A stretch of 64,000 bases of DNA from Dissulfuribacterales bacterium (GCA_041287365.1 JBEULL010000004.1:72353-136352), one strand, 5' to 3'; positions 24,326-55,855 are shown, counted from the stretch's first letter. A program made the numbers and translations. The notes: a model not told the origin generated them from the sequence alone.

Positions 24326-24340
24326 TGGTGCAGTACTCGC
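24326..24340 (+). promoter_or_regulatory. Weak sigma-54-type -24/-12 candidate upstream of the RRM-hyp gene string
   Basis: TGGTGCAGTACTCGC has GG and GC with the canonical 10-nt spacing. The flanking positions fit TGGCAC-N5-TTGC only partly. It lies ~55 nt upstream of ATG 24395. Confidence 0.25.
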
Positions 24341-24394
24341 GGCAGGAACGCAAAAAAGAGCCCTTTTTTCTCTAACTATTTTCGGGACAAAACA

Positions 24395-28602: not shown

Positions 28603-29595
28603 ATGCTTCGAAAATTGATTGTAGTCGCTGCCTGTGCAGGCCTGATCATGGGCTGCACTCAGGCCGTTGAAAAGCGGGCTAACATCGTAAAGCCGCCGGA
28701 GATCGATCCATGCGCCAAGTATGTGGGAAATGACACCTGTATGGGTTGTCATGAAGAAATCTCCAAGGAACGGCACAATGTGCATTTGCGTATCGCATCC
28801 TTTGAGGCGCCAGGTGCCAAGGCCATTGGCTGTGAGGGCTGTCACGGACCAGGCTCTCTTCATGTGGATGGCGGAGGAGACAAGACCAAGATTTTGCGTT
28901 TTGGTGAAGAAGGTCTGAATGATGAGGAAGTGGCGGCTGTGTGTACCACCTGCCACAGCTCCAAGGAACATTTGAACTGGGCTGGCTCCGCCCATGCGGA
29001 AAATGATGTCACCTGCACCACCTGTCACAAGGTGCATAAAAACGACAATAAGGCCCTGCTTTTCAAGGGTCAAAACGAGCTCTGCGGCACATGTCATCAA
29101 GATGTCATGGCTCAGACCTATTTTGCATCCCATCATCCCATTAAAGAGGGCAAGATGGGCTGCACAGACTGTCACAACCCCCATGGCGGAAATAACTTCG
29201 GCAAGGCCATGCTCAAGACCGATGAGCGTGTCAACGACCTCTGTCTCAAGTGCCATACCCGTTATCAAGGGCCGTTTGTTTTTGAACACGATCCTGTTGT
29301 GGAAGACTGCATGATCTGTCACGACCCTCACGGTACGGTAGCCAACAACCTGCTGCGCCAGCAGGAGCCATTTCTGTGTCTGCAGTGTCATGAGGCACAC
29401 TTTCATGCAGCCCGTGCATCCAACAGCAAATTCGCTGTAACGGCACCAGGGGATGCCTCCAGCACCATAGGTGCTACGGAATATGGATTCCAGAAGTCCT
29501 TTATGACTAAATGCACACAATGTCACCCCTATGTGCATGGTTCGGATCTGCCTTCGCAGTCTGTAGCCGGCCAGGGTCAGGCATTGACAAGATAG
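28603..29595 (+). CDS. Decaheme c-type cytochrome, MtrA/DmsE/PioA family, probable lipoprotein
   Basis: Ten CxxCH motifs counted by hand (CMGCH, CEGCH, CTTCH x2, CGTCH, CTDCH, CLKCH, CMICH, CLQCH, CTQCH). Terminal CTQCHPYVHGS. The signal peptide has LIMGC. Strong RBS GAGGAGG. Confidence 0.9.
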   Translation: MLRKLIVVAACAGLIMGCTQAVEKRANIVKPPEIDPCAKYVGNDTCMGCHEEISKERHNVHLRIASFEAPGAKAIGCEGCHGPGSLHVDGGGDKTKILRFGEEGLNDEEVAAVCTTCHSSKEHLNWAGSAHAENDVTCTTCHKVHKNDNKALLFKGQNELCGTCHQDVMAQTYFASHHPIKEGKMGCTDCHNPHGGNNFGKAMLKTDERVNDLCLKCHTRYQGPFVFEHDPVVEDCMICHDPHGTVANNLLRQQEPFLCLQCHEAHFHAARASNSKFAVTAPGDASSTIGATEYGFQKSFMTKCTQCHPYVHGSDLPSQSVAGQGQALTR

Positions 29596-29608
29596 AGGAG
29601 GAAAGACC

Positions 29609-31555
29609 ATGAAAAAACGATATCTAACTGTATTGGTTGGTCTTTGTCTTGCCGTGCCTTTTGCTACGCCATGTCTGGCAGCAGATTCCTCAGACAAGCC
29701 CCTGCAGGGCGAGATATCCATCGGAGGCAAGTGGCAGCTGGATGACCTGGATAAACATGAAGGCAAGGCCAAGGGTGGTGCGGAATTCGATAGCACCGCT
29801 GACAAAAATCTGTCGTGGGATACCGGCGCCAAACTGGATTACAGGAGCCCGTCCATAAATTTCGACGTGGATGGTCGCTATAAGGACGGTGATGACCAGA
29901 CCTACGGCGGTAATCTGGATTTGGGTCGTATCATGCTTTACAAGACCAATTACGACCGGTTCATGCACCGCCTGGGCCATGATTATCTGGACAATCTTAC
30001 TGCGCAGATCTTTCGGGCTGCAGGTACTCCTGGTGCACCGGTAGGTCTGCCGTTCCCATGTCCTGATCCCAACAACCCTGCCTTCTGTCAGGCCCTGCCC
30101 GATACAGACCCAAATACCGCTGGCTATCAGAACTCCAGAAGCACCATCGGCGCTGCGGCTGTGTATCACACGGATCACGACCCGTTTGCAGACTATCACA
30201 CTACGCACACCACCTGGGAGAACAGCTTAACCTTCAATGTGCCGCAGTTGCCTGGTCTGCAGGTGGGCTTTGATCACAGACAGGAAAAGCGTAAGGGTTG
30301 TGCGCAGGCCTTGACCACCAGCAAGTGCTCGGCCTGTCACATCGAGTCCTACAGCAAGGGTATAAACGAAGAGACCAATGATTATATGCCAAAGGTGTCG
30401 TTGAAGCTGGAGGCCCTTGCCCTGGAGTACTCCTTCCTGCACAGGGAGTTCAACGACAAGAGCCAGGAGATGATAAACGGCTACAATACATTGACAGCGG
30501 CCCACATAGCCCCGTTCGCTTCAAGTCTGCAGTTCCCAACATACAGTGGGACCACTTTGAATGCGGGTTCGGAGATTTTGCCATTCAGCCGTACGCCGGA
30601 CTCCACCAAGGACAGCCATACCCTGAAGGGTCGCTATGACATCGATGCCAACAACACCGTGATAGCCGGGATAGTCTATTCCAAGAGCACCAATACTCAG
30701 ACAGACGGCGCTTACAGCCCACTTTACGGCGAGTTCGGCAAGGACCTGGAGCTGGACAGCACAGCTATGATGGCCAAGTGGCACAGTCGTCTGTCTTCTA
30801 CTGTGAGTCTGAACCTGTTTGGCAAGTATCAGACCATGAATAATGACAATGTCGGCATAGATATAAACGATGCCGCCTTGCACAACAAGTATAAAAACGA
30901 GCCGGGAGATCTGTGGGACTTCACTCGTCAGTCCGCCTATGACATGGATATCCTCACTATGGGGGCTGACATGTCCTGGAAGTTGGTCAAGGGCATAACC
31001 TTAAAGGGAGGCTATGAGTATAAGAGGGATAATCGCAAGAACGCCGATCTTCTGAATGTGCCGGAGACCACGGATGAGCATACCATAAAGTTGGGCGGTG
31101 ACTGGCGTATCAATCGCACTATGAAGTGGGCATTGGGTTACAAAGGTCAGTTCGTGAGCCATCCCTATGCCTATAAAAACGCCGTGTGTACTCCGTGGGG
31201 CAGTTTCGGTCAGTATGCAGGGCCTGCCTCTGATGGTGCGGATTACTATAGAAGCTATGGACCAACCATCTATGACGCCCGCACAGGCACTCGTTCCAAC
31301 CTGCCCAATCAGGCCCATGAGTTCAGCCTGAAAGGGAACTTTATGCCCATGAAGACCCTGTCCGCCAATCTGTATGGAAAGTACAGAACTGCCAAAAACG
31401 ACGATGTTAGCGGCAACGACTGGCAGCAGGACCTCTTCACCGGCGGCCTGAATCTGGTGCTTACGCCGTTTGAAAAGCTCGTATTCACTGCTGGTTATAA
31501 CTATTTCTATGATACATATGACTCGATGTATTGTATCGCCCTCTATGATGGGTGA
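29609..31555 (+). CDS. MtrB/PioB-family outer-membrane beta-barrel protein, N-terminal 648-codon segment ending at an in-frame TGA
   Basis: Signal peptide ending CLA-AD. Long alternating Tyr/Gly/Asp-rich strand pattern. It sits directly downstream of the decaheme gene, as in mtrAB/pioAB. The segment lacks a C-terminal aromatic residue. Confidence 0.8.
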   Translation: MKKRYLTVLVGLCLAVPFATPCLAADSSDKPLQGEISIGGKWQLDDLDKHEGKAKGGAEFDSTADKNLSWDTGAKLDYRSPSINFDVDGRYKDGDDQTYGGNLDLGRIMLYKTNYDRFMHRLGHDYLDNLTAQIFRAAGTPGAPVGLPFPCPDPNNPAFCQALPDTDPNTAGYQNSRSTIGAAAVYHTDHDPFADYHTTHTTWENSLTFNVPQLPGLQVGFDHRQEKRKGCAQALTTSKCSACHIESYSKGINEETNDYMPKVSLKLEALALEYSFLHREFNDKSQEMINGYNTLTAAHIAPFASSLQFPTYSGTTLNAGSEILPFSRTPDSTKDSHTLKGRYDIDANNTVIAGIVYSKSTNTQTDGAYSPLYGEFGKDLELDSTAMMAKWHSRLSSTVSLNLFGKYQTMNNDNVGIDINDAALHNKYKNEPGDLWDFTRQSAYDMDILTMGADMSWKLVKGITLKGGYEYKRDNRKNADLLNVPETTDEHTIKLGGDWRINRTMKWALGYKGQFVSHPYAYKNAVCTPWGSFGQYAGPASDGADYYRSYGPTIYDARTGTRSNLPNQAHEFSLKGNFMPMKTLSANLYGKYRTAKNDDVSGNDWQQDLFTGGLNLVLTPFEKLVFTAGYNYFYDTYDSMYCIALYDG

Positions 31556-41183: not shown

Positions 41184-43574
41184 TTATTTGATGCATACAC
41201 TTCTAACCTGCTTGATGTCTGTGTGCCCTTGCAATATCTTCCATATGCCGTCCTGCTTCAGTGTCAGCATTCCCATCTGCATGGCATGCGCTCCGATCTT
41301 GAAGACCGGCGCCTTGGATTGAATCAGCTTTTTCATTTCGTCATCGGATGTCAGCAGTTCGTGAATAGCCATGCGTCCCTTGTAACCCGTATAGTTACAG
41401 GCCTGACACCCAACCGGTTTGCAGATGGTGTAGTTGTTGAATTCCAGAGGAACAGTGGGATGGACTCCGTATTCTTTGAGCAGCATCTCTTTTTCTTCTG
41501 CACTTGGTTCATACTGTTCTTTGCATTTAGGACAGAGACGTTTCAGAAGCCTCTGAGCCAATACTCCAAGAAGGGCATCGGAAAAATTGAACGGGTCCAT
41601 ACCCATGCCCAGCAGCCTCGTAACAGTTTCCGGAGCGGAGTTGGTATGCAGGGTTGAAAAGACCAAATGGCCGGTCAGGGATGCCTCAATAACGGTGGTA
41701 GCGGTTTCTTCGTCTCGTGTTTCACCCACCATTATGATATCCGGGTCTGCTCTCAGAAATGCCCGCAAGACACGAGCAAAGGTCAAGCCTATGGCCGGTT
41801 TGACCTGAACCTGTCTTAGACCTTCCTGCACGATTTCAACAGGGTCTTCAGCTGTCCAGATCTTCTTTTCTGGTCTATTGACATAGCCCAGGGCGGCATG
41901 GAGTGTGGTGGTTTTACCTGAACCCGTGGGGCCGACGCAAAGAATAAGTCCATAGGGCATCTCAAGTATCTGCTTCATCGTGGCAAGATTTCTTTCCGAA
42001 AGATTCAGTTTGTCCAGGGGCATGGCCGAGGAAGCCGCCAGTATTCTCATGACCACGTCCTCGTTGTCTTCAGTAGTGGGCAGGGTGGCTACGCGCAGCT
42101 CTATGGTCTTGCCTGTGCGGCTCTTGAACTTAATCTTACCGTCCTGTGGCAGTCTTTTTTCTGCGATGTCCAGATTGGACAATATCTTGATGCGGGAAAC
42201 CAGGGCCTTTTTGTAGTTGTATGGAACGGTCTTGTATGGCCTGCAATCTCCGTCCACTCGCAGCCGAATGAAGGCCCCGCGTTTTCCAGTCAGGGATTCC
42301 ACATGGATATCCGAGGCATTTCTTGCAAAGGCATCCTCTATGACCTGATTGACCAGTTGAACGACGACACTGTCTGACTCAGGGGCGATTAGTTCTTCTT
42401 CTTCTGTTTCAGTGAGATCTTCTGTGGCTATTGCCTCAAAGGCATCCTGTTGTGTCTCGGTTACGGTGTATTTGCCGTAGAAGTAGTCGATAAATTTGTC
42501 GATGTCCTCTTTAAGGCACACCACAAATTCATATTGAGGGAATTGAATGGCCTTGCGAATGCTGTCCAGTTTGGCATAGTCATGCGGATCGTCCACCGCT
42601 ACCAGCAGACTATGGCCTAAATCCTTGATTGGCACACAACTTATGTTGCGTAGAAAATGTTCTTTTATTCCAGTCAGACACTTTGGAGTGGAACCGACCT
42701 CCAGTTCGTTGAATTCCACAAATGGGACATTGAAATATTCGCTCAGAGAATGACCGATCTCACTTTTGTCTATGCCGAAAGAGTTGATCAGGACGAATTC
42801 GATGGATTTTTTGTCGTTTTTTGCGATTTCTCTGGCCTGTTGCAGTGCCTGTTCTTTCAAAATGCCCGAGGTGACGAGATAGGAAAAACGGCCGTATCTC
42901 TGGGCGGTTTGCGTCAGGTCCTTCAGTCTTTGAGCCGCATTCATGTACTGCGGGTCGAGATGTATCAGTTGTTCAAGAGAGGATATTGCGGACTGAATGG
43001 CCCCGGTTCTCTCATGAATGGTGGAAATCTTGTAGAGCAGTTCGAGCCGAGTGGCCTTTGGTATGGTCGTATCCTTCAAGGCCATGCCAAACTGTTCCAG
43101 GGCGTCGAAAGGCATATTCAAGCCGATATAGCACTCGCCTATCTGTGCATATATCTCACCCGGCCTGTCCGTCATTTCCAGCAGTTTGGAGAAATCCGTT
43201 ATGGCTTCACGATAAAAACCGGCCTCTTTGAGTCCAAGTGCGTTTTCCTTGTTTTTTTCAAAGAGGTCCTGCGGACTGGAGGAGCCTGATTGAATGTCAT
43301 TGCCATGGTCGTGCGATTCACCAGATGTGTTTTGCAGCTTTTGCAGTTTTGCCTCTATATCTTTATAAAAAGGGGATGTTACGTCGGTGAGTTTGAAGAG
43401 GATATCTTCATATATTTCGATGGCCTCTTCCATCAGGCCCTGTTTGGCATACAAGGCCGCCTCCTCGGCCTTGACCGTCAGCTCGTCTGATGCCGGAGCG
43501 GGAGCATTGGCCTGAGCCGGCGGTGTATTGCTATCTTCTATAACTAATTCTAAATCCAGGACATCTTCCTGCAT
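41184..43574 (-). CDS. GspE/PilB-family secretion ATPase with N-terminal TPR extension
   Basis: Walker A GPTGSGKTTT, Asp box GETRDEETA, His box STLHTNSA and a tetra-Cys site CPKC...CQAC. A T2SSE_N-like region is present (FSYLVTSGILKEQALQQA...NVPFVEF). The N-terminal ~230 aa are TPR-like. The preferred start is ATG 43574 after GAGG; the ORF track uses TTG 43622. Confidence 0.85.
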   Translation of the reverse strand: MQEDVLDLELVIEDSNTPPAQANAPAPASDELTVKAEEAALYAKQGLMEEAIEIYEDILFKLTDVTSPFYKDIEAKLQKLQNTSGESHDHGNDIQSGSSSPQDLFEKNKENALGLKEAGFYREAITDFSKLLEMTDRPGEIYAQIGECYIGLNMPFDALEQFGMALKDTTIPKATRLELLYKISTIHERTGAIQSAISSLEQLIHLDPQYMNAAQRLKDLTQTAQRYGRFSYLVTSGILKEQALQQAREIAKNDKKSIEFVLINSFGIDKSEIGHSLSEYFNVPFVEFNELEVGSTPKCLTGIKEHFLRNISCVPIKDLGHSLLVAVDDPHDYAKLDSIRKAIQFPQYEFVVCLKEDIDKFIDYFYGKYTVTETQQDAFEAIATEDLTETEEEELIAPESDSVVVQLVNQVIEDAFARNASDIHVESLTGKRGAFIRLRVDGDCRPYKTVPYNYKKALVSRIKILSNLDIAEKRLPQDGKIKFKSRTGKTIELRVATLPTTEDNEDVVMRILAASSAMPLDKLNLSERNLATMKQILEMPYGLILCVGPTGSGKTTTLHAALGYVNRPEKKIWTAEDPVEIVQEGLRQVQVKPAIGLTFARVLRAFLRADPDIIMVGETRDEETATTVIEASLTGHLVFSTLHTNSAPETVTRLLGMGMDPFNFSDALLGVLAQRLLKRLCPKCKEQYEPSAEEKEMLLKEYGVHPTVPLEFNNYTICKPVGCQACNYTGYKGRMAIHELLTSDDEMKKLIQSKAPVFKIGAHAMQMGMLTLKQDGIWKILQGHTDIKQVRSVCIK

Positions 43575-43680
43575 ATTTTTTACCTCATTTATATAACATA
43601 CCGGTATGCTGTATCTTTTCAATTAGAATGGAGAATCAGCGGATGATCGGCATACATTGTGCCGGCATTCAGCGACTATT

Positions 43681-45189
43681 TTATGAAAATATTTCCTGCG
43701 ACAATACATGTATTTCATCGTCGTTCTTTTGCAGTACGCCTGTAAAAAATGGTTTTGCCGAAGCGTCTTTCCATGTCCATGCATCGGTCTTGAAGGGGGT
43801 CGAGGGGCTATCGGCCAGAATGACACAACCCTTGGATAGTTCCGGGTTCCAAAGGATCAATACGGATGGTTCCGTGATGATGATGGATGGAGGCGGTTCG
43901 GGTGAAACAAGGATTGGAAACGTCATAGTTTTTAGCTGGCTTTCATTCAGAGATGCCAGACTGCCTCCCAAAAGAGAGCGAATGTTGGACCACGGCCATT
44001 TTTTAAGCATGGTTAAGGGAAAGCTGTCTTTTGAAAGGAGCTTCTTGGCCCTGCCCCATGGGAGCTTGCCTTCAAATACAATATATTCCTGAGGGAATGC
44101 AATGCGTTTGCCCCACCATTCCGTCCTGGCCAGCATGCGCCACGGACAAACGGCCTGAGGGGGTTTGGCAGCTTCCTGGGCTTCGGAATGGGCGCCGGAC
44201 ACAACATGTCCCACTGGCTTGTGAATGGCCTGGGATAGAAGGCGCTCCTGCGCCGCCATGTCCTGTTTCAATTGCCTGTGAAATGCCAGTAGTTTTTCCA
44301 TGCCTGATACGCCTGAGAGGATTTTTTCCAGGGCATCCAACCTGTCCACCCATCTGCCGAGTTGCATTGTATGTCTGGCGACCGTTTCCTGTAATAAAGG
44401 TGGCGCTTCTGGTGTACTCGGAAGGAAGTGTTTCGATGAAACAGGCGGTTCTGTTTCAGGTACGAGTTGCAGGTTGGGGAGAGATTGTTCAGACATGGGT
44501 CGCTGCAGATCACGGGCCATGTCCGCAGCGGATGCCAGTGTCTGGGATGTGACGCCGGTGACAGGGGCTTGCTTCATCTGAAATGGAATATCCTGCTGTA
44601 TCCTTTCTATATATTCAAAAAACTCATTGAGCTCATGCGCGAGAGGGGCAGCCATCGCAATGGTTTTTTCATGGGTCATATTGTCTGAGGTAAGTATCCG
44701 TTCCAAGACATCGAAGAGATTTAGAAGCAGTTTGGGAGAGTGACTGGGTGCCTGGTTGAGTGGAATGGCCTCGATAGCTGCCAGTATGTCAGCCATTTGA
44801 GTCATGACATTCTGTGTGTGCTCGATCTGGTCTGCTGTCAAATTTGCGCTCAATTCGTCAAGTAACCGCCGTGCCTTCTGAATGTGTGGAACGGCTATTT
44901 CCCATTCGATGGTCATCAGGCTTTGGTAGAACTCTCTCAGGGCATTCTGAAGAGGCAGAGGCAGCTTGGCTGTATTATGCGCAAAGAGCTCTGATGTAGA
45001 TGTGGAGTCATGTGTGCCCGGAGTTGTTGGAGTTGAAGGGGTGGGCTCGGTCTTCGGGGAGACATCCTCCCCCTTGATTTCATTGGTCAGAGGGTCTATT
45101 TCTATTTTTTTTATTGGCGTAAAAAGAGAATCGATGGCATTCTCCATCTCTTGAGTGAGTTGTTCCATGGAATTTTCAGAAGTGTTCAT
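43681..45189 (-). CDS. Hypothetical protein (helical N-terminal two thirds, Pro/Thr linker, possible degenerate CheW-like C-terminal domain)
   Basis: Start ATG 45189 follows GGAGG at a 7-nt spacer. No motif is recognised with confidence. It lies between mglA and the ATPase on the same strand. Confidence 0.55.
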   Translation of the reverse strand: MNTSENSMEQLTQEMENAIDSLFTPIKKIEIDPLTNEIKGEDVSPKTEPTPSTPTTPGTHDSTSTSELFAHNTAKLPLPLQNALREFYQSLMTIEWEIAVPHIQKARRLLDELSANLTADQIEHTQNVMTQMADILAAIEAIPLNQAPSHSPKLLLNLFDVLERILTSDNMTHEKTIAMAAPLAHELNEFFEYIERIQQDIPFQMKQAPVTGVTSQTLASAADMARDLQRPMSEQSLPNLQLVPETEPPVSSKHFLPSTPEAPPLLQETVARHTMQLGRWVDRLDALEKILSGVSGMEKLLAFHRQLKQDMAAQERLLSQAIHKPVGHVVSGAHSEAQEAAKPPQAVCPWRMLARTEWWGKRIAFPQEYIVFEGKLPWGRAKKLLSKDSFPLTMLKKWPWSNIRSLLGGSLASLNESQLKTMTFPILVSPEPPPSIIITEPSVLILWNPELSKGCVILADSPSTPFKTDAWTWKDASAKPFFTGVLQKNDDEIHVLSQEIFS

Positions 45190-45236: not shown

Positions 45237-45851
45237 TCATTTGATCAGCAGATGCTTTTTTGCGACGTATTTAACGGTCAGCTTGCTGATTTCGCGCAAT
45301 GTTTCAAAAACCCCCACCCCTTTTACGGCCGATGCCTCGAAATCAGGCCATTTATTGTGAGGATTCAAATCCCTTTTCATCTCTTCGATGGATAGGGTTG
45401 GTATGGGAGAAGATACCAGGTCCCGTTTGTTGTATTGTATCACCATAGGGATTTCGTCCAAGGATTTTCCATGTTCTTTTAGATTGACGGCCAGGTCCTG
45501 AAGGCTTTCGATGTTTTTTGTCTTTCTGACCTTTAAGGAGTCCGCTACAAAAACTACACCATCCACACCTTTCAGAACCAGTTTGCGAGTAGATGCATAG
45601 ATGGTCTGCCCAGGCACTGTATAAAGTTGAATACGAATGTCAAATCCACCTATTTTGCCCAGATTCAGCGGTAATAGATCGAAAAAGAGGGTGCGATCGC
45701 CCTTTGTTTCGATGGTCAGCATCTTGCCTTTGGCGGCGTCGCTCATGGCGTTATAGATATAGATCAGATTAGTGGTTTTGCCGCATCTGCCTGGACCATA
45801 ATAGACCACCTTACAGTGAACTTCCTTTTTACTGAGATCGATTAAAGCCAT
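45237..45851 (-). CDS. mglA: Ras-like polarity GTPase MglA
   Basis: It aligns almost end to end with Myxococcus MglA from memory: CKVVYYGPGRCGKTTNL, DRTLFFDLLPL, LYTVPGQ, LKGVDGVVFVADS, VIQYNKRDL. Confidence 0.9.
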   Translation of the reverse strand: MALIDLSKKEVHCKVVYYGPGRCGKTTNLIYIYNAMSDAAKGKMLTIETKGDRTLFFDLLPLNLGKIGGFDIRIQLYTVPGQTIYASTRKLVLKGVDGVVFVADSLKVRKTKNIESLQDLAVNLKEHGKSLDEIPMVIQYNKRDLVSSPIPTLSIEEMKRDLNPHNKWPDFEASAVKGVGVFETLREISKLTVKYVAKKHLLIK

Positions 45852-45901: not shown

Positions 45902-46294
45902 TCAATTCAACAATTCGCGTAGGTGCTGGGATGCCTCTGTGACTTTCAGTCGAACCACCCCCAGTGAAACATTGTCATTGAAGATAGAAATCAGTATATA
46001 GTCCTGGCCTATCTTGGCAAAATGGATACTGTCTTTTTTGCCCTTGTGGAACAGGAGGCTGAAGTCTTCTTCTCCGATGATGCGGGCGATCTGTGAGGTG
46101 GCTGCAAAGTTGGCTGCTGTAAGTGCTGCGAGGGAGATGATGTCGATGCCCTGCATATGTTCGCCGCAACTGGCGATTATGTTTCCGGCGCTGTCCACTA
46201 ATAAAACCGAGTGAATGCCGGCTGCTATGAGGTTGTTCTCAAGTTGTGCTCGAATAGCGTCCAATTTTGCAGTGGTTAAAACGAGGTCTCCCAT
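45902..46294 (-). CDS. mglB: Roadblock/LC7-domain protein MglB (MglA GAP)
   Basis: 130 aa with a Roadblock-type pattern (VLLVDSAGNIIAS...AALTAANFAA...). It lies immediately upstream of mglA. Confidence 0.8.
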   Translation of the reverse strand: MGDLVLTTAKLDAIRAQLENNLIAAGIHSVLLVDSAGNIIASCGEHMQGIDIISLAALTAANFAATSQIARIIGEEDFSLLFHKGKKDSIHFAKIGQDYILISIFNDNVSLGVVRLKVTEASQHLRELLN

Positions 46295-46531
46295 CTTTAG
46301 ACTCCATGAAGAAATGCTTTAAGATACCGGTTGTGCACCGGTTGTCACATTGTAAATTTACTCAGAAAGTTGGTTGCCACAATTCGATTCATTTTTTATT
46401 ATGTAGTTGGATTTTTTTCAAGTGAAATTCTTGTCGAAAGGTTTTACAATGAAAAATATATTTGTTATAATTAATAATAGTTCCGAATAATATGTTAAAG
46501 ATCAATTTTATGGGAAGGAGGTGCCTGATGC

Positions 46532-47380
46532 ATGTATGTGTCTCTGATTGAACGGTTGAACGGCATTCATGACCTGCCTTCCATTCCCAATACACTCAAC
46601 AAGGTGCTGAACGAATTGGCGCGAGAGTCTTCAACTCCGGATACCATCGAGATCATCATCAAGGAAGACCCTTTGCTCACGGCCAAGCTGTTGCAGGTGG
46701 CCAATTCCCCTTATTATGGCATGGCCGGAAAGATCAGCAGCATAGCGAGGGCCATAGTGATCATGGGCTTCGCAGAGGTGCGAAACCTGGTGGTGGGCAT
46801 CTCCCTTACAACCATGGTGACGGGTGATCTGGGCTTCGAGGAATTCAAAACCAAAGATCTGTGGCTTCATTGTGTGGCCGTTGCCACTGCTGCCCGCAAG
46901 CTGGCCCAGCATATTCCAGGAATGGACACTGAAGAGGTGTTCACTCTCGGTATCATGCATGATATCGGTCGTTTTTTGCAGTGTCTTTATTTTCCAAATG
47001 AAATGCGAGAGCTCCTGAAGGCGAACAACGGCATCAAGAACCTCTATGCGGCGGAAGAAAACGCCGGAATCCCTCACACAGAGATCGGGGCCTATCTGGC
47101 TCACCGTTGGAAGTTGAGCGAAATGTTCGTCGAGGCCATTCGTTATCATCACAGACCTCAGGGCGCTGGCCCATACACCGCCCATGCATCCGTGTTGTTT
47201 CTGGCGGATCAATTGTGTAAAAAATTGCAGATCGGATGGCATGGTGAGGACGTGGACAATCGTCTTTTAATCCCCAAGACATTGTCCTTGTCACAGGATA
47301 TCATAAAAGGGGTTGCGATTTACATGAAGGAACAAAAGGATGAGATTGAAAGGGCGTGGGATGAGGTATTGTCCACGTAG
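46532..47380 (+). CDS. HDOD-domain signalling protein
   Basis: Blocks LPSIPNTLNKVLNEL...DPLLTAKLLQVANSPYYGMAGKISSIARAIVIMGF and HD-like HDIGR. RBS GGAAGGAGG. Confidence 0.85.
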   Translation: MYVSLIERLNGIHDLPSIPNTLNKVLNELARESSTPDTIEIIIKEDPLLTAKLLQVANSPYYGMAGKISSIARAIVIMGFAEVRNLVVGISLTTMVTGDLGFEEFKTKDLWLHCVAVATAARKLAQHIPGMDTEEVFTLGIMHDIGRFLQCLYFPNEMRELLKANNGIKNLYAAEENAGIPHTEIGAYLAHRWKLSEMFVEAIRYHHRPQGAGPYTAHASVLFLADQLCKKLQIGWHGEDVDNRLLIPKTLSLSQDIIKGVAIYMKEQKDEIERAWDEVLST

Positions 47381-47454: not shown

Positions 47455-48642
47455 TTGGCGAATTCAAAAGATCCGGTGCGTGTGCTGATAGTTGACGATA
47501 CCGCCTTCATGAGGCGGGCGCTGGTGGATATCTTTTCCAAGGATGCGGATATCAATGTGGTGGGAGTGGCCAGTCATGGTCAGGAGGCCATAGAGGCCAT
47601 CGAGCTTCTGTCTCCGGACGTCATCACCATGGATGTAGATATGCCGGTAATGGACGGCATCACCGCAATCAAATACATAATGGTGAAAAATCCCAGGCCC
47701 ATTATCATGATCAGCGGTATGGGAGGCCATGGTCCTGTCACTTTGGAGGCATTCAAGCTGGGTGCGGTGGATTTTTTGCAAAAACCATCCGGCACCATCT
47801 CTTTGGACATACATTCTCAGGCGGAGCATCTGTGCAAGGCTGTAAAAGAGGCTGTCGCTGTGAATGTGCGTCATATAAAGCGGGCGCGTCTGAGAATGCC
47901 TGTCATATCACAAGCCCCTGTAGCAGGACCTGCAAACGGCCTGTTGATATTTCTGGCATTGAAGGGTGCCTGCGGTCAGGTGATGCGTACACTTATGCAC
48001 ATAAAACCCTCGCTGCCGGTTTCCATTTTGGTGATTCATGATATGCCTCCGGAAGTGCTTAAATCCTATGCCACCGCATTGAGCAGACACGTGCCATGGG
48101 GTATTCGTGTGGATGAACGCGGAATGCTGCAAATGCCCGTACAGGAAGAGGGTTTTGAGGATGTCGCCTGTGATATATTTGATAGATTCTGTTCTGAGCA
48201 GGGTGTGGCGCATTTCTATCGTCTTATTCCAAACGATGACCTTGATCTGTTCTTGCTGGCCGTGGCGGAAAAGCTGGGGGAAAAGGCCTTGGCTGTGCTT
48301 TTCGGAGGTCCATCGGACGCGGGTATAGAGGGGTTGGCCGCTGTTGCAAAGGCCGGCGGTGTCAGTCTGGCCATGTCACCGGATATCTGTATCTACCCCA
48401 ATGCCACGAGACATGCCATTGAATCAGGGGCTGCCATTCAGGTTCAGACCGAAAACGACATCTGGAATCGAATAGACATCTTTGGTCGTCGTCTCAAATT
48501 TACGGTTGATACAACTGAAGACGCGCAGCGACAGACAGCCTTAGTGAACGATGCGGTGGGACCATCGAATACCGCCGCCCTGCCTGAACAGGAGGGTGTG
48601 TGTGCCGATGAAACCTCTGCGCCATTGGAGATGACATTATGA
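47455..48642 (+). CDS. REC + CheB-methylesterase-like protein, paralog 1 (nucleophile Ser apparently missing)
   Basis: CheB-type receiver (VLIVDDTAFMRR...DVITMDVDMPVMDG...AVDFLQKP). The C-domain carries LALKGACGQ, VIHDMPPEV and GGPSDAGIEG in place of GASTGG, QHMPPGF and GMGxDG. TTG start after AGGAGG. Confidence 0.8.
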   Translation: MANSKDPVRVLIVDDTAFMRRALVDIFSKDADINVVGVASHGQEAIEAIELLSPDVITMDVDMPVMDGITAIKYIMVKNPRPIIMISGMGGHGPVTLEAFKLGAVDFLQKPSGTISLDIHSQAEHLCKAVKEAVAVNVRHIKRARLRMPVISQAPVAGPANGLLIFLALKGACGQVMRTLMHIKPSLPVSILVIHDMPPEVLKSYATALSRHVPWGIRVDERGMLQMPVQEEGFEDVACDIFDRFCSEQGVAHFYRLIPNDDLDLFLLAVAEKLGEKALAVLFGGPSDAGIEGLAAVAKAGGVSLAMSPDICIYPNATRHAIESGAAIQVQTENDIWNRIDIFGRRLKFTVDTTEDAQRQTALVNDAVGPSNTAALPEQEGVCADETSAPLEMTL

Positions 48643-49724
48643 GCGGCAATGCGGACATCAATGCCGGGAATAGGCTCACGCGGCCTGTGCGGGTTTTTAT
48701 TGTGGACGACTCACCTCTGCTCTGCAAGGCTATCGAAAAGATGCTTCAGGACGACCCTGAAATAGAGATCGCCGGTCATGCCATGAGCGGCCAGGAGGCA
48801 TTGAACCTGTTGCCCAAAGCCGATTGTGATATATGCACACTTGACGTGCATATGCCTGGTATGAGCGGTATAACCGCGCTCAAACACATCATGATTCGTT
48901 TCCCTGTGCCGGTTTTGATGTTGAGTGCCTTTACCGCTGAAGGCTCACGCATTACCTTCGAGGCCCTTCGATACGGGGCGGTGGATTTTTTTCAAAAGCC
49001 ATCGAGGTTGAATGCCGGCGAGGCCGACAGCATTCTTGCACAGGCCAATATATTGAAGTCTAGACTCAAGAGGGCGTCCCGTGTAAGACTGGATGCAGCC
49101 CGTTATTTGAGATTGAAGGTGAAGCCGCGAGGACTGGCAGCGGCAACACAGGCAAAAGAGAAAGGTATAGTGGTCATAGGCACAACTACAGGAGGATATG
49201 CCTCGCTTCTGTCGTTGCTGCCCAATTTGAGCGCCCCGCCCACAACACCAGTTTTGGTCTTTCTTGGTGTAGCTCCTCAGTATGTCGGTCCATTTGCCGA
49301 ATATCTAAAGGCATATCTGCCGTGTCCTGTGGTCAGAGGAACACATGACAGCCGGCTTCAGGCCGGCAGCATCTATCTGGTTAGTATGTCAGAGTCGGCT
49401 GGCTTGGAATATCGAGGTGATGATACCTATCTGTTGTTGAACAATCGCTCCGAACTTATGGGAATGGAAAGCGGTCTGGATCTGCTGCTCTATTCGGTGA
49501 GTGAACACTTCGGCCCTCGAGGATTGGCGGTATTTCTGTCCGGCGATGGAACCGAGGGACTGGAAGGGGCAAGAGAGCTGGCCAGATGCGGCGGTATGGT
49601 GTTGGCGCAGACGCCTGAGACCTGTCTGGTGCCGGAATTGTCCGAGGCTGCCGGCCGCATAGAAAACGCCCGAATCTGTTCTTTGGCCGAACTATCGTCT
49701 CCCATCGTTTCATGGCCGTCCTGA
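48639..49724 (+). CDS. REC + CheB-methylesterase-like protein, paralog 2 (degenerate triad)
   Basis: Receiver with DICTLDVHMPGMSG. The C-domain carries IGTTTGG, FLGVAPQYV and SGDGTEG. ATGA overlap with paralog 1. Confidence 0.8.
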   Translation: MSGNADINAGNRLTRPVRVFIVDDSPLLCKAIEKMLQDDPEIEIAGHAMSGQEALNLLPKADCDICTLDVHMPGMSGITALKHIMIRFPVPVLMLSAFTAEGSRITFEALRYGAVDFFQKPSRLNAGEADSILAQANILKSRLKRASRVRLDAARYLRLKVKPRGLAAATQAKEKGIVVIGTTTGGYASLLSLLPNLSAPPTTPVLVFLGVAPQYVGPFAEYLKAYLPCPVVRGTHDSRLQAGSIYLVSMSESAGLEYRGDDTYLLLNNRSELMGMESGLDLLLYSVSEHFGPRGLAVFLSGDGTEGLEGARELARCGGMVLAQTPETCLVPELSEAAGRIENARICSLAELSSPIVSWPS

Positions 49725-49765
49725 CGGGCGGTTTCCCATACTGCATCAGAAGGTGACCATGGTAT

Positions 49766-51163
49766 ATGTCTGAACAGGACCTGCTTTCGATCCTTGAACA
49801 GATTCATGCAAAACAAGGTGGATTTTGCGGTATTTTGACTGGAATATCACTGTCTGATCTGGTTCAGATGTTATGTCAGGTGCCTTGCGGTAACAAAAAG
49901 ATATGCTTTCAATTTCAAAACGGCAATGGTTCCATCTATTTCATGGATGGCGAGATCGTTCATGCCGAAATAAGTGGTTGTAACTCCGTGAACGGAGAAG
50001 AGGCATTTTATGAGCTGCTCTGCCAAAGGGAGGGGACATTTCTCGTTACGGATGCAAATCATGTTTTGAAAACCATTCATGCCCCATGGCACGCCCTGCT
50101 CATGGAGGCCATGAGAAGAACGGATGAGATAGCGGCTGCAACCAGTTCCAGGGTTACAGAGGTAATGATTGTGGATGATTCGCGTCTCTTTGCCAATGTC
50201 CTGGAAAAGGCATTGACGGAGCAGTGTAACGCGAAAGTCGTAGGCAAGGCCTTTGACGGCAAGACAGCCCTTGGACTTTTGAAGGGCATTCGGCCAGACC
50301 TTTTGACCATAGACATCACCATGCCGGTCATGGCAGGGGATTCGCTGCTGAAAAATATCATGATCCGTTCACCGGCGCCTGTGTTGCTTATGAGTTCCAT
50401 GGGTTCAGGTACCATGCCCAAGATCATGGAATTTCTTCGGCTTGGAGCAGTGGATTACATTCCAAAGCCCAGGTCCGAGGCTGAATGGTCTGACTGTCTG
50501 GAGCGGCTCATAAGACATGTGCAGGATGTGGGGCGTTACTCCTTGAGACATATCAGCAGGGCCAAGGCGGTTATGCCGGTCATGCACAAAAGAGATGCCA
50601 TTGAAAGGGCGGAAAGGCTGCTCGTGGTGCTGGGAGGTGTTGGTGGAATGCTGGAGATTCAAAGGCTTCTGCCCGGCCTGTGCGGGCTGGAGGGTATCGG
50701 TGTCGTGATTTTTCAGGACATGGCCGAGGGGTTTCTGCAGCCGTTTGCAGATTATCTCTCCAAATCTTTCTGTTTTCATCTCTCCACCATGAAACATGGT
50801 GATATTCTTCAGGGTAATGCCTGTAAAATTGCATCATGGAAACATACATGGCGCCTCGATGCTCTTCAGAACAGGTTGTCCGTATCCGTTGTGCCAAGTG
50901 AATCGTCTTTGGATATCAACGTATTTTTGAGTGATGCTGCGAAATATTACGGCACCAAGCTGCATGTCTTGATTTTGAGCGGCACCAGATTGGATGTGGA
51001 GGCAGGGTTGCAGGATGTGGTGACGCATGGGGGTCATATCTTTTTGCAGAATGTTGATTCGGCCATTTTTGCCGAACCTTTGTTGCAGATAGCTGCCCTG
51101 GAACTCGAAGAGTCCAGCATAGACCCTGCAAAAATAGCTGAAAGTTTGATGACAACTCAATAA
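49766..51163 (+). CDS. DUF4388-like + REC + CheB-methylesterase-like protein, paralog 3 (degenerate triad)
   Basis: The N-terminal block LTGISLSDLVQML...GSIYFMDGEIVHAE...GEEAFYELLCQREGTFLV is DUF4388-like. Receiver with DLLTIDITMPVMAG. The C-domain carries VLGGVGG, FQDMAEGF and SGTRLDV. Confidence 0.75.
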   Translation: MSEQDLLSILEQIHAKQGGFCGILTGISLSDLVQMLCQVPCGNKKICFQFQNGNGSIYFMDGEIVHAEISGCNSVNGEEAFYELLCQREGTFLVTDANHVLKTIHAPWHALLMEAMRRTDEIAAATSSRVTEVMIVDDSRLFANVLEKALTEQCNAKVVGKAFDGKTALGLLKGIRPDLLTIDITMPVMAGDSLLKNIMIRSPAPVLLMSSMGSGTMPKIMEFLRLGAVDYIPKPRSEAEWSDCLERLIRHVQDVGRYSLRHISRAKAVMPVMHKRDAIERAERLLVVLGGVGGMLEIQRLLPGLCGLEGIGVVIFQDMAEGFLQPFADYLSKSFCFHLSTMKHGDILQGNACKIASWKHTWRLDALQNRLSVSVVPSESSLDINVFLSDAAKYYGTKLHVLILSGTRLDVEAGLQDVVTHGGHIFLQNVDSAIFAEPLLQIAALELEESSIDPAKIAESLMTTQ

Positions 51164-51210: not shown

Positions 51211-51552
51211 ATGTCTCGTATATTGGTAGTCGATGATTCGAGTTTTATGCGTAAACGTATAGTGGATGTCCTTATGAAGGTCGGTCATGATGTAATAGGT
51301 CAGGCCGAAAATGGGGAACAGGCGATCGCCCTTTATGCGGAATTGTTGCCGGATTTTGTGATTATGGATGTTACGATGAAGGGTTTGGATGGAGTGGAGG
51401 CTGCGAAGCGTATCAAAAAACAGCGACAGGATGCAAAGATTATCTTTATGAGTCTGGTTTCGGATGTAGAGGTTGTAGAACAGGCCAAGGCCCTTGGAGC
51501 GGTGGCGTTTTTAAAAAAAGACGAATACGACCGTTTGTTGGCCTTGTTGTAA
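51211..51552 (+). CDS. cheY: Single-domain response regulator (CheY-like)
   Basis: 113 aa, with ILVVDDSSFMRK and DFVIMDVTMKGLDG. Confidence 0.8.
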   Translation: MSRILVVDDSSFMRKRIVDVLMKVGHDVIGQAENGEQAIALYAELLPDFVIMDVTMKGLDGVEAAKRIKKQRQDAKIIFMSLVSDVEVVEQAKALGAVAFLKKDEYDRLLALL

Positions 51553-51611
51553 ACATTCTGCGACTGCATGACCCGTTGTAAAATCTGTCATTGTTGAACC
51601 AAGGAGGAATC

Positions 51612-54434
51612 ATGGCTGTTGACAAGGAAATGCTCAAGGAGTTTGTGGCCGAAGTAGAAGACAATCTGCATGAATTGGAAAATAATCTTCTGGTGTTGGA
51701 ACATGATTCGGCCAATCGTTCTTTGCTGGATGCCTGTTTCAGAAATATGCATACAATAAAGGGTTCCTCCGGCTATATGGGCTTCACATCCATGGCTAAA
51801 CTGGCGCACGCCATGGAGGATATGTTCGACCGCGTCAGGAGAGGGGATGCAACTATTGCCGAACCAGGTATGGCGCTCGTATTTCAGGGGGTTGATGCCC
51901 TGAAAACCCTTTTGAATGAGTTGGAGGCGCAAGGTGAAGAGATGACGGATTTTTCAGGCCTGAATGCCAGGTTTGAAGAATTCGGCCGGCAGCCTGCAAT
52001 ATTGGAAACAGCGGCGCAGTCGTTACCTGATGTTGATGTCGAGGGTACTGAAACGATGCAGGCCGTGAAGCAGAAACCTGATGCGGTGACTGAAAATGAG
52101 GAGGACGAGGAGTTGTTTTCCATCTATAAAGATGAACTCAAGGGGTTGTTGTGGCAGCTCTCAACCCTTTTGCAGAACGACAGCGCCCCTGGTTCCGAGG
52201 TTATCAGGATTATCTCAGATATAGAGAGAATGACCAATTATGTGGGTATCGATGACCTGCTCGATGCCCTGCAGAAGCACCGTGATGCCATATCAGGATT
52301 GGGCGACGATATAAGTCGCAGCGATCTAGAAAAGATATATCGAGACCTGCTGGATCTTTTCAGACCATTGATCGGAGAGACGGAAGATGTCCTGATGCAG
52401 ACTCCGGAGTCATTGCCAGCCTTTCTCGAAGAAGACGATCAGGAACTCTATGGCATTTTTTTGGATTTTGTGGCGGAAAAATCCGTTCCGTTCGCCAGTA
52501 TGCCGAATATCGCAGACGAGACATGGATAGCGAAGTGTCAGGAGTCCATAGAGGCCATACGGAGTTCAGCCCATTATATGGATTACATGGACGTGGTGGC
52601 GCTCATGGACGAGTGGATGGAGAGACTGACCGAGGCCCTCACGGCCTGTCACAGCGGTGCATGTCTGGTAACAAGTCCGCTTCAAAATCTATGGGAAAGA
52701 TTGCAGCAGATGCTGCCTGGTCTCACAGAGAAATTCGAGGCCATGCATAGCGAACAAAAAGAGGCATCCATCGGAAGTATTTCTGAACTCGACGATGTGT
52801 TGGACGGATTGTTTCAGGACAATATGCTGGACTTCGGCCTTAAAGAGATGCAGCCGGCGCAGGCTGCATCGAGCTCAATGGAGGCTATAGAGGCAGAAAA
52901 GACCAAAGAGGAGCCGTTCTCAGGAGATGTTCACAGCGGCGCCATAGACGACGCCATCTTCGACAACGCCTTCAACGACATGTTCGAAGCGCAGCCCGCG
53001 GAAACCATTCAGACACATGTAGCGGCTTCGAAGGAGACAACGCAGACTTTTTCGTCTGATCTGTCGCGGCCGTTGACCGTAAAGACACCGGATACCTCAG
53101 GCATGAGGCAGCAGCCGGAGGTTACTGCCACTGCAACCCAGACGGTCAGAATCGATCTGTCTCGTGTGGACCAGCTTCTGGGGGATGTGGGTGAGCTGGT
53201 GGTGTTGAGGGCGGGCATGAAACAGATGTCTGACCAGATGAGAGACATTCACCGCTATCTCCTCAGCAAGGGTCTGCTCAATCGGGATCTCAGAGAATTC
53301 AAGGACGTAATGATACGCATGAGTGAACAGACCTCGACCATGAGCCGTATCCTGAATCATCTGCAGGACGGAATCATGAAGATGCGCATGCTGCCTATCG
53401 GTCAACTGTTCGACAGATATCCACGTATGGTGAGGGATTTGAGCCAGAAACTTGGTAAAAAGGTGGTATTGGACATCTCTGGAGCGGATACCACTCTGGA
53501 TAAACGTATAATAGAGCAGATGGTGGATCCCATGATGCACCTCATTAGGAATTGTGTGGATCACGGCATAGAGCCCCCTGATATTCGTGAAAAACTGGGT
53601 AAGCCCGCGGTGGGTACAATACTGTTGTCGGCATCCCAGGAAGGCAACTTCGTGACTATCACCATAATGGATGACGGAAAGGGCCTGGATCGGGATGCAC
53701 TCATTCAAAAGGCTGTGTCCATGGGTATTCTGTCCGCTGAACAGACCAGGGGGCTGCCGGATGAAAGGGTCTGGGAGCTCGTTTTTCTTGCGGGTGTGTC
53801 CACTGCCTCCCAGATTTCCGACACGTCCGGCAGAGGAGTGGGTATGGATGTGGTCAGGAGGAATGTGGAAAAGATCGGCGGGCAGATACAGATATCTTCC
53901 ACACACGGTAAGGGCACTCGGTTTGTGATTCGTATTCCATTGACCCTTGCCATTATTCAGGCGCTTCTGGTCAAAGTAGGCCAGCAGACCTTTGCCGTGC
54001 CGCTCTCTGTTATAAAGGAGACTCTCAGGGTGCATTCCCAGGAGATCAGCAGTATCGAGGGCATGGAGATGTTCTCTCTCAGACAGCAGACCGTGCCTTT
54101 TATCCGTCTGTCCTCCATTTATAGGGGTACAGGGGCGTTGAAAGAACAGGGAAAATTTTTCGTGGTAATGGTGCAACATGGTGAATTTGTTGCAGGGCTT
54201 GGAGTGGATGCACTCGTCGGCCAGCAGGAGATTGTGATAAAACCATTGGCTGAATATCTGACGGATCAACCTGGTTTTGCCGGCGCGACTATTCTCGGTG
54301 ACGGCTCTATCGCACTGATTCTGGATATCCCGTCGGTCATGCAGCGAGCCAGGCAATTTACACAATTAAAACAGCAAGTTATGGAGAAAAATGCCATCGG
54401 CTTGCACGAGGGTTACGGCGGCTTCATGCAATAG
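51612..54434 (+). CDS. cheA: Chemotaxis-type histidine kinase CheA with additional Hpt-like repeats
   Basis: Hpt domain with FRNMHTIKGSSGYMG, a dimerisation region, HATPase (HLIRNCVDHGIE, DDGKGLD, GRGVGMDVV) and a C-terminal CheW-like domain. Start ATG 51612 follows AGGAGG. Confidence 0.9.
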   Translation: MAVDKEMLKEFVAEVEDNLHELENNLLVLEHDSANRSLLDACFRNMHTIKGSSGYMGFTSMAKLAHAMEDMFDRVRRGDATIAEPGMALVFQGVDALKTLLNELEAQGEEMTDFSGLNARFEEFGRQPAILETAAQSLPDVDVEGTETMQAVKQKPDAVTENEEDEELFSIYKDELKGLLWQLSTLLQNDSAPGSEVIRIISDIERMTNYVGIDDLLDALQKHRDAISGLGDDISRSDLEKIYRDLLDLFRPLIGETEDVLMQTPESLPAFLEEDDQELYGIFLDFVAEKSVPFASMPNIADETWIAKCQESIEAIRSSAHYMDYMDVVALMDEWMERLTEALTACHSGACLVTSPLQNLWERLQQMLPGLTEKFEAMHSEQKEASIGSISELDDVLDGLFQDNMLDFGLKEMQPAQAASSSMEAIEAEKTKEEPFSGDVHSGAIDDAIFDNAFNDMFEAQPAETIQTHVAASKETTQTFSSDLSRPLTVKTPDTSGMRQQPEVTATATQTVRIDLSRVDQLLGDVGELVVLRAGMKQMSDQMRDIHRYLLSKGLLNRDLREFKDVMIRMSEQTSTMSRILNHLQDGIMKMRMLPIGQLFDRYPRMVRDLSQKLGKKVVLDISGADTTLDKRIIEQMVDPMMHLIRNCVDHGIEPPDIREKLGKPAVGTILLSASQEGNFVTITIMDDGKGLDRDALIQKAVSMGILSAEQTRGLPDERVWELVFLAGVSTASQISDTSGRGVGMDVVRRNVEKIGGQIQISSTHGKGTRFVIRIPLTLAIIQALLVKVGQQTFAVPLSVIKETLRVHSQEISSIEGMEMFSLRQQTVPFIRLSSIYRGTGALKEQGKFFVVMVQHGEFVAGLGVDALVGQQEIVIKPLAEYLTDQPGFAGATILGDGSIALILDIPSVMQRARQFTQLKQQVMEKNAIGLHEGYGGFMQ

Positions 54435-55293: not shown

Positions 55294-55414
55294 TCGTGTT
55301 TGCTCATTACAGGCATATAATATGCATTCAAAAAGACAATTCGCCTGTACAGGCAGATTCTTCGGCTCTATCGTTGATTGACTTTATCGGCCGTTGAGAT
55401 TAAAGGAGAAAGAT

Positions 55415-55855
55415 ATGAAAATTTTGCCTAACCAGTCCAATACGTCCATTGTTTCGTCAAAGCAAGGTAATGGCTCGAATGCCTCCGGCATCTCTTTCGA
55501 TGAGTTGCTGAACAAGTTGTCGAGTGCAGGTCCTACATCCGTGCAGAATGCTGCTTCACTGTCCTCCATAGAAGTTACCGCCCCTGCTGCCGATTCGGTG
55601 CGGTCTGATGCCATGCAGAATGCCTATGACACCCTGGATGTCCTGGAACGCATGGAATGGACACTGACAACCTCTTCGGGTCTTTCCGACTCCGCCAAAG
55701 AAACCTTCAGCTCTTTACTGGACGGCGTTATGGATAGATTGAAGGCCAGCCGGGACAGTCTGGATGCACACGATCCCCTGGTGGATCTTCTGAATCAGAT
55801 CGGCGTGATAGCCGTGGTGGAGCGGGCCAGACTAGGACAGACCGGAATATCTTGA
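55415..55855 (+). CDS. Hypothetical protein (Ser/Asn-rich N-terminus, helical C-terminus)
   Basis: ATG 55415 is preceded by AAGGAG. No family was recognised. Confidence 0.5.
   Translation: MKILPNQSNTSIVSSKQGNGSNASGISFDELLNKLSSAGPTSVQNAASLSSIEVTAPAADSVRSDAMQNAYDTLDVLERMEWTLTTSSGLSDSAKETFSSLLDGVMDRLKASRDSLDAHDPLVDLLNQIGVIAVVERARLGQTGIS

Follow-up and report, generated by a model that had tools for sequence, protein, structure and literature searches.

CheB is the textbook response regulator with an enzyme output, and databases name every protein that carries its PF01339 domain a methylesterase. In other signalling proteins, such as the degenerate GGDEF/EAL proteins FimX and LapD, an enzyme domain without catalysis is kept as a regulated docking module; we use this as an analogy only. 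Here we analysed a 64,000-nucleotide stretch from a Dissulfuribacterales bacterium (GCA_041287365.1, JBEULL010000004.1:72353-136352; hereafter the window) that encodes three adjacent CheB-like proteins, which we call P1, P2 and P3. We conclude that they are very probably non-catalytic pseudo-CheB regulators that are maintained by selection.

Besides CheB, other described systems bear on this locus. One is the PatA-type (PATAN-REC) regulators, in which PATAN is the output domain and, in Synechocystis, binds the N-terminal domain of PilB1 as well as PilC (bioRxiv 10.1101/2021.06.11.447907). Another is the MglA/MglB switch. According to a passage of PMC4316618 that cites Makarova 2006, mglA and mglB genes recurrently adjoin PATAN genes; in P. 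aeruginosa and M. xanthus mglA is not encoded beside its partners (PMC4316618).

Three CheB-like proteins without the catalytic triad

A first-pass annotation of the window had placed three tandem paralogs with a receiver (REC) and a CheB-like domain at 47455-51163, with a DUF4388-like N-terminus on the third, and open reading frame (ORF) calls and Pfam agree with it on both points. P1, P2 and P3 are intact ORFs on one strand exactly at these positions (Table 1), and the reading frames of P1 and P2 overlap by 4 bp, as read off their coordinates. P1 consists of a REC domain (amino acids 10-114, 81.5 bits), a C-terminal CheB-fold domain (C-domain; CheB_methylest, PF01339; amino acids 175-339, 53.2 bits) and a poorly conserved acidic tail (amino acids 346-395). 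The REC domain of P2 spans amino acids 19-124 (75.4 bits) and its C-domain amino acids 178-353 (94.4 bits). In P3, a PATAN/DUF4388 domain (PF14332, now PatA_N; amino acids 22-121, 54.4 bits) precedes the REC domain (amino acids 133-240, 64.3 bits) and the CheB-fold domain (amino acids 289-460, 63.3 bits). All of these matches are above the Pfam gathering scores (24 for CheB_methylest, 25 for DUF4388/PATAN). The NCBIfam models for CheB gave scores far below their cut-offs with all three proteins (NF001965, cut-off 293: 172, 217 and 148 bits for P1, P2 and P3, respectively; NF009206, cut-off 342: 137, 178 and 133 bits), and no other NCBIfam model reached its cut-off with any of them. P1 is 100% identical to P0121, a protein from a Dissulfuribacterales metagenome-assembled genome (MAG) that carries the NCBI name 'chemotaxis protein CheB'.

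We mapped the catalytic triad by three methods, with S164/H190/D286 of E. coli CheB and the PDB structures of CheB (1A2O, 6YMZ) as the reference: phmmer of P1-P3 against 1A2O and 6YMZ, MAFFT L-INS-i alignment of E. coli CheB with the 120 best homologues of each paralog, and hhalign, with which we compared each family profile to 46 canonical Ser-His-Asp (S-H-D) CheBs (probability 99.8-100%). The positions of S164, H190 and D286 are occupied by L169, D196 and A289 in P1 and by T183, G210 and E306 in P2, which are non-catalytic residues throughout, and by G291, D318 and D410 in P3. The three methods were concordant for all triad residues of P2 and P3 and for the H190 and D286 positions of P1. At the S164 position of P1, hhalign and MAFFT gave L169 and phmmer a neighbouring alanine, and none of the alignments placed a serine there. 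Canonical CheBs within the same alignments read S-H-D and serve as an internal positive control.

The absence of the triad from all three paralogs, which the first-pass annotation had read from alignments by hand, is thus confirmed by pairwise, multiple and profile-profile alignments. The hand alignments were correct for P2 (Ser to Thr, no His, Asp to Glu) and for P3 (no Ser, His to Asp, Asp kept). For P1, the lack of Ser and the shift of His by one position stand, but the Asp described as kept does not, as D288 aligns with N285, one residue ahead of the catalytic Asp position; this was the sole correction to come from the alignments. The shifted histidine of P1 (H195) lies at the Q189 position and is not kept in the orthologues (P1-family consensus Q-D). 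We also weighed C173 of P1 (in GACGQ) as a possible cysteine nucleophile and rejected it, since the profile alignment puts it at the T168 position and the family does not conserve it.

Of the 120 homologues of P3, 119 have a Gly where CheB has its nucleophile, and D410, at the D286 position, is not conserved across the P3 family. In the P2 family, the consensus at S164 is Ser; the P2 of the window has Thr, and T, G, A or N replaces Ser in many members. No His is present at position 190 in any of the close relatives of P2 in the MAFFT alignment, and no His is conserved anywhere in the P2-family C-domain. As a control, we used 46 CheB C-domains from unrelated che loci across phyla, picked by REC patterns only. 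The S-H-D triad was found in 43 of these 46 domains versus none of the three here (Fisher p = 0.001), and versus none of the 34 CheB-like domains in 16 related loci (Fisher p = 2e-19).

The receiver domains keep their phospho-acceptor context, as had been noted before. The equivalents of CheB D10/D11/D56/S83/K107 are D14/D15/D60/S87/K110 in P1, D23/D24/D69/S96/K120 in P2 and D137/D138/D183/S210/K234 in P3, and the counterparts of D11, D56, S83 and K107 are invariant or nearly so across the P1, P2 and P3 families. The CheB fold is also kept in the dead domains (by hhalign for P1-P3, by an AlphaFold2 (AF2) model for P3). The P3 model has a predicted local distance difference test score (pLDDT) of 84.6, with ∼84-90 in the PATAN region, and Foldseek aligned it to full-length CheB 1A2O with a template modelling (TM) score of 0.80 and to the catalytic domain 3SFT with a TM score of 0.85 (root-mean-square deviation 2.3 Å). 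The closed packing of the REC and C-domains predicted for P3 resembles inactive CheB.

Descent and selection of the three families

P1, P2 and P3 are only 24-30% identical to one another, which does not exceed what they share with E. coli CheB (23-27%). In a neighbour-joining tree each of them falls into its own clade together with orthologues from other taxa, and no S-H-D member lies inside these clades. The first-pass annotation had proposed a phylogeny as a check for local duplication. Because their mutual identity is this low and each belongs to an orthologue family of its own, the copies are not local duplicates; they are ancient paralogs. The deep nodes among the three families and canonical CheB have bootstrap values of 14-73, too low to tell a single loss of catalysis from repeated losses. 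The families occur mainly in Thermodesulfobacteriota, and a P1-like member was found in a MAG of Chromatiales (Gammaproteobacteria). The PATAN-REC-CheB-like architecture of P3 is present in >110 homologues, whose hosts include Dissulfurirhabdus, Thermodesulfatator, Ca. Electrothrix, Electronema, Desulfosarcina, Desulfococcaceae and others, and a P2 orthologue (P0273) is on record from Dissulfurimicrobium hydrothermale.

The three C-domains differ in what their families conserve. The P2 family has 36 positions that are at least 85% conserved in and just ahead of the C-domain, D303, Y187, Y222, Y246, R270 and E277 among them, and several of the 36 fall on the triad-bearing loops of CheB (TGGY, SGD and QxPxxCL). 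In the P1-family C-domain almost nothing is conserved, and in that of the P3 family the conserved positions are mostly glycines. We compared the window with its close relatives L084 and L085, which have the same gene order, by the ratio of nonsynonymous to synonymous substitution rates (dN/dS, Nei-Gojobori). For the C-domains, dN/dS was 0.15-0.17 in P1, 0.06-0.07 in P2 (the lowest) and 0.16 in P3, whereas the comparison genes of the operon gave 0.14 (CheY), 0.13 (CheA) and 0.07 (HDOD), and MglA 0.05. As the values of the C-domains are similar to those of CheY and CheA, the dead domains are maintained by selection.

With the high conservation of P2 one could envisage rewired enzymes or enzymes with a new substrate, for example a P2 family that works through Ser/Thr183 together with Asp303 or the tyrosines. 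The consensus Ser, the set of at least 85% conserved residues listed above and the lowest dN/dS of the three would all suit such an enzyme, but the P2 C-domain offers no conserved His, its Ser is often replaced (also in the window), the nucleophile position holds Leu in P1 and Gly in P3, and all three proteins score under the CheB model cut-offs. We therefore regard this explanation as very improbable.

A second alternative is that P1-P3 act as phosphate sinks only, so that three receivers drain phosphoryl groups from CheA and shape the kinetics of phosphorylated CheY while their C-domains are inert. In other bacteria CheYs are well established as sinks; here the receiver residues are invariant, a single CheA faces four receivers, and the window encodes no CheZ, CheC or CheX phosphatase. 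However, a REC domain alone would suffice for a sink, whereas here three distinct C-domains were kept as separate families across orders and over long divergence, at dN/dS of 0.06-0.17, P2 has its 36 conserved positions and P3 has the additional PATAN output domain. Of the roles that the first-pass annotation had suggested, phosphorylation-dependent adaptor or phosphate sink, that of a pure sink is disfavoured on account of the retained C-domains and of the conserved positions of P2, and we consider it improbable.

The same data bear on the suggestion that these genes are what a decaying, formerly canonical che operon has left behind, or that the loss of the triad is an alignment artefact. Although the Pfam score of the P1 C-domain is low (53 bits) and its family conservation poor, the ORFs are intact, dN/dS is well under 1 and orthologues with fixed synteny exist across orders, and the profile-profile probabilities as well as the canonical S-H-D sequences in the same alignments speak against an artefact. 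This explanation is essentially refuted. At the level of sequence it is well supported that P1-P3 are pseudo-methylesterases and not receptor demethylases or deamidases. The first-pass annotation had inferred as much, and the loss of the triad, the missed CheB cut-offs, the absence of CheR and the selection on the C-domains all agree with it.

In che clusters of Desulfobacterales and Chromatiales there is a further CheB-like group, in which Tyr replaces the catalytic His (S/A-Y-D). Its members are ∼411 aa long, some with an N-terminal Zn-ribbon (L006 3828-5456, L086 116-1174, L014 1105-2181; proteins P0329-P0359), and the member from Desulfosarcina ovata (T-Y-D) is annotated as a methylesterase.

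The operon, its divergent neighbour and related loci

P1-P3 belong to an apparent operon HDOD-P1-P2-P3-CheY-CheA, opposite to which a second operon is transcribed divergently (Table 1). The best promoter-like site of the 237-bp intergenic region between them lies just upstream of the HDOD gene. The matches of CheA to the NCBIfam CheA models are below the equivalog cut-offs, and the phospho-His motif HTIKG is present in its sequence. Of the usual parts of a chemosensory cluster, the window encodes CheY and a CheA that has all of its Hpt, dimerisation, kinase and P5 domains, while a methyl-accepting chemotaxis protein (MCP) and CheW to go with the kinase are absent.

Table 1. Genes and promoter match of the pseudo-CheB operon and of the divergent operon (positions in the window)
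Feature	Coordinates	Strand	Description
PilB/GspE-like secretion ATPase	41184..43622	-	812 aa; N-terminal TPR extension, GspE_N/MshEN; T2SSE 393 bits
Protein without family	43681..45189	-	502 aa from M18 start; between MglA and PilB-like ATPase
MglA-like Ras-family GTPase	45237..45851	-	Pfam Arf/Ras
MglB-like Roadblock/LC7 protein	45902..46294	-	First gene of divergent operon; Pfam Robl_LC7
Sigma-70-like promoter match	46443..46471	+	TTTACA-17-TATAAT, 11/12, with TG; consensus match only
HDOD protein	46532..47380	+	HD-related output domain; first operon gene; Pfam HDOD 185 bits
P1	47455..48642	+	395 aa, TTG start; REC + degenerate CheB-fold domain
P2	48639..49724	+	361 aa; REC + degenerate CheB-fold domain
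P3	49766..51163	+	465 aa; PATAN/DUF4388 + REC + degenerate CheB-fold domain
CheY-like single-domain response regulator	51211..51552	+	Pfam REC 83 bits
CheA histidine kinase	51591..54434	+	947 aa; Hpt, acidic middle, dimerisation, HATPase, P5/CheW-like (Pfam)

CheA also contains a long, acidic and fast-evolving middle region (amino acids 121-510, window 51951-53120; dN/dS ∼0.25) with Hpt-like helical segments that have no HxxKG motif. Relatives have three Hpt domains instead (the 1550-aa CheA of Desulfatitalea) or, as in D. thermomarina, encode Hpt in a small gene apart from CheA.

In the divergent operon, the MglA-like GTPase (75% identical to its orthologue in the related locus L003) has the P-loop GPGRCGKTT, NKRD and, as a hallmark of the MglA type, the G3 motif TVPGQ in place of DxxGQ. 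Its Roadblock/LC7 partner, the MglB-like protein, scored 64 bits with NCBIfam MglB (cut-off 200 not reached). The PilB-like ATPase (60% identical to the L003 orthologue) matches Pfam T2SSE, MshEN and tetratricopeptide repeat (TPR) models, with the TPRs in an N-terminal extension of ∼240 aa, and shows a Walker A and a tetracysteine motif. A regular-expression search of its N-terminus for the canonical MshEN c-di-GMP motif gave no match.

The 502-aa protein encoded between MglA and the ATPase has no Pfam or NCBIfam match and only 85 representatives among 1.84 billion proteins. In its AF2 model (pLDDT 79) a helical-bundle N-terminal part is joined to a β-rich C-terminal domain. The 15 best PDB matches of this C-terminal domain in Foldseek were all CheW or CheA-P5 (E ∼2e-3, TM ∼0.5), and the helical part matched CheA-P1/Hpt. 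By sequence, Pfam CheW was found in 2 of 42 family members (E = 0.016), and the match of the family to CheW in hhalign was weak (E = 0.008, probability 5%). This protein may be a cryptic CheW-like scaffold, as its predicted structure suggests. The conserved divergent operon MglB-MglA-unknown-PilB-like ATPase, together with the PATAN-PilB link, is the most informative context of P1-P3, and it was missed by the first-pass annotation.

The order of the ten genes (PilB-like ATPase, 502-aa protein, MglA and MglB, divergent from HDOD, the three pseudo-CheBs, CheY and CheA) is identical in five other loci: the close relatives L084 and L085, L082 from Dissulfurirhabdus thermomarina (an isolate), L087 from Dissulfurimicrobium, and L003 from a MAG with the label Desulfobacterales. 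The order persists although the pseudo-CheBs are only 34-42% identical to their L003 orthologues. The HDOD gene is syntenic in the same five loci, and the CheY gene in all relatives examined. In Desulfobacterales, cable bacteria and the Chromatiales MAG we found other versions of the system, in which the genes that surround CheA are P1-like, in several loci also P2-like and, except in the Chromatiales locus, P3-like.

Directly 3' of the P1-like gene in these other versions stands a gene for a Zn-ribbon protein with a ParA/MinD-like ATPase (L022 12460-13470, L006 12646-13587, L083 4722-5636, L086 10093-11052), and an ABC transporter that includes a binding protein of the phosphonate type often comes next. 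The window has no such Zn-ribbon gene.

CheR was absent from all 16 loci of the system, whereas it was present in 27 unrelated che loci, which served as the positive control. In the window we found no gene for an MCP, CheR or stand-alone CheW, and the CheW hidden Markov model (HMM) matched CheA-P5 only. Two kinds of weak match were rejected: a CheR-HMM match at 4260-6005 (-) is a YcaO cyclodehydratase with C-terminal TPR repeats that was matched via the TPRs, and MCP-HMM matches in the window and in several loci are HAMP-only proteins. The earlier statement that MCP and CheR genes are missing nearby therefore holds for the window, but in five related loci (L006, L010, L011, L082 and L086) an MCP lies in or beside the cluster.

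These MCP genes would fit a methylation-independent receptor feedback, in which the phosphorylated dead domains bind the adaptation helices (glutamate/glutamine) stoichiometrically and modulate CheA in a CheV-like manner. Such a role would also be in line with the triad-carrying loops kept by the P2 family, with the lack of CheR in all loci of the system, hence of a substrate for a catalytic demethylase, and with the CheB-like closed packing predicted for the REC and C-domains. Yet the window has no MCP or CheW, P1 and P3 keep little of the cleft besides glycines, and the feedback leaves both the conserved MglA/MglB/PilB-like partner operon and the PATAN domain unexplained. We consider it unlikely.

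The reading that we prefer, with moderate confidence, is that P1-P3 are regulators phosphorylated by CheA whose dead esterase domains serve as docking modules, probably to steer the MglA/MglB-PilB-like machinery. CheA would pass phosphoryl groups to four receivers (P1, P2, P3 and CheY), and phosphorylation would loosen the REC/C-domain interface, as in CheB, which here would unmask or mask a binding surface rather than an active site. The PATAN domain of P3 could bind the PilB-like ATPase at its N-terminal region, in the manner of the cyanobacterial PatA-type regulators, and/or the MglA/MglB switch, and kinase activity would thereby be coupled to a pilus-type motor, through its polarity or its activity. 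P2, with the best-conserved former active-site loops of the three, may well continue to bind a peptide or a receptor segment that it no longer hydrolyses, and P1, with its poorly conserved C-domain, may mainly tune the phosphate flux.

Several observations weigh against this docking model. MglA, MglB and the PilB-like ATPase adjoin the pseudo-CheB genes only in loci of the Dissulfuribacterales type and in L003, and MglA alone does so in L005 and L008. The versions from Desulfobacterales, cable bacteria and Chromatiales variously include CheY, CheW, MCP, the Zn-ribbon ParA-like ATPase or an extra cNMP-PATAN protein; as these loci are che clusters, the ancestral partner may be a receptor array and not PilB. 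The PilB-like ATPase scored 520 bits with NCBIfam PilB, below the cut-off of 676, and also missed the GspE equivalog cut-off, and the window holds no other pilus genes or nearby secretion genes. Finally, the P2 family for the most part retains the Ser, together with a conserved cleft, so that some non-canonical catalysis could persist in it. For PilB and MglA/MglB as the output of the P1-P3 pathway we would accordingly put the chances at even or slightly below.

More tentatively still, the locus could represent a new chemosensory-like class, in which three co-evolving CheB paralogs became phosphorylation-switched docking domains that wire CheA to MglA/MglB and a TPR-fused PilB-type ATPase, possibly via a cryptic CheW-like scaffold, and in which adaptation would work by stoichiometric binding and not by receptor methylation. 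Taken as a whole, we see this as a rather doubtful extension of the docking model.

Elsewhere in the window, a multihaem c-type cytochrome (paired CXXCH, MtrC-like matches) followed by an MtrB/PioB-type outer-membrane porin (28603-31555, +) looks like an extracellular electron-transfer conduit. A sigma-54-dependent response regulator is followed by a dCache-HAMP-GGDEF diguanylate cyclase (20542-24162, +), the sole c-di-GMP enzyme of the window, ∼22 kb away from the che-like operon. The gene at 24209-24757 (+) encodes a 182-aa protein with an RNA recognition motif of the eukaryotic type (RRM_1, 81 bits). Downstream of MazG, a small Ser/Ala-rich protein (55394-55855, +) gave a sub-threshold match to FliX (20 bits, cut-off 25), and the genes at the same position in L084 and L085 had no Pfam match.

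Comparison with known systems

The dead but conserved CheB families, which occur in Dissulfuribacterales, Desulfobacterales, cable bacteria, Thermodesulfobacteria and a Chromatiales MAG and are mis-annotated, point to Che signalling that is free of methylation. They also provide a testable genetic link between a CheA phosphorelay, PATAN, the MglA/MglB switch and a PilB-type ATPase, in organisms in which the control of motility has not been studied, and cultured isolates are among the hosts (Dissulfurirhabdus thermomarina, Desulfatitalea alkaliphila and Dissulfurimicrobium hydrothermale). In an incomplete literature search we found no published description of a catalytically dead CheB or of the ten-gene module, and a survey of Geobacter che clusters is silent on them.

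P1-P3 share with CheB of E. coli and Salmonella (PDB 1A2O, 1CHD, 6YMZ, 3SFT) the combination of REC and CheB_methylest domains, the intact receiver set, the fold, the closed packing (predicted here, for P3) and an operon with CheA and CheY. They differ from it in that they have no Ser164-His190-Asp286, fall under the NCBIfam CheB cut-offs and have no CheR partner, and in that three co-conserved paralogs, one with an extra PATAN domain, take the place of one enzyme.

Among P1-P3, only P3 resembles the PatA-type regulators, as its first two domains are PATAN and REC and as it shares a chemotaxis-like operon, free of CheR and of catalytic CheB, with a plain CheY and a CheA. However, PatA-type regulators end after REC, while P3 runs on into a dead CheB-fold domain of 180 aa; here the genes for MglA, MglB and the PilB-like ATPase adjoin the operon of P3, whose host is not a cyanobacterium but a sulfur-metabolising member of the Thermodesulfobacteriota.

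The Pil-Chp system of P. aeruginosa (PilG/PilH/ChpA/ChpB) and the Frz-RomR/FrzX-MglA/MglB-SgmX-PilB pathway of M. xanthus likewise have a CheA-type kinase and several response regulators that act on a PilB-type ATPase and/or MglA/MglB. In M. xanthus a separate TPR protein, SgmX, is the link between MglA-GTP and the formation of type IV pili, whereas here the TPRs are fused to the PilB-like ATPase itself. Both systems have active CheR/CheB pairs, with MCP and CheW in the cluster, while here three dead copies stand in the place of the adaptation enzyme.

CheV and the phosphate-sink CheYs are receiver proteins phosphorylated by CheA that tune signalling without modification of the receptor, and P1-P3 would be like them in this respect. 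CheV, however, combines REC with a CheW domain and the sinks are single-domain proteins, so that neither has a CheB fold. The degenerate GGDEF/EAL proteins are unrelated in fold and ligand. The parts of the locus are all of known kinds; what is new is their combination, and CheB turned into a conserved pseudoenzyme family.

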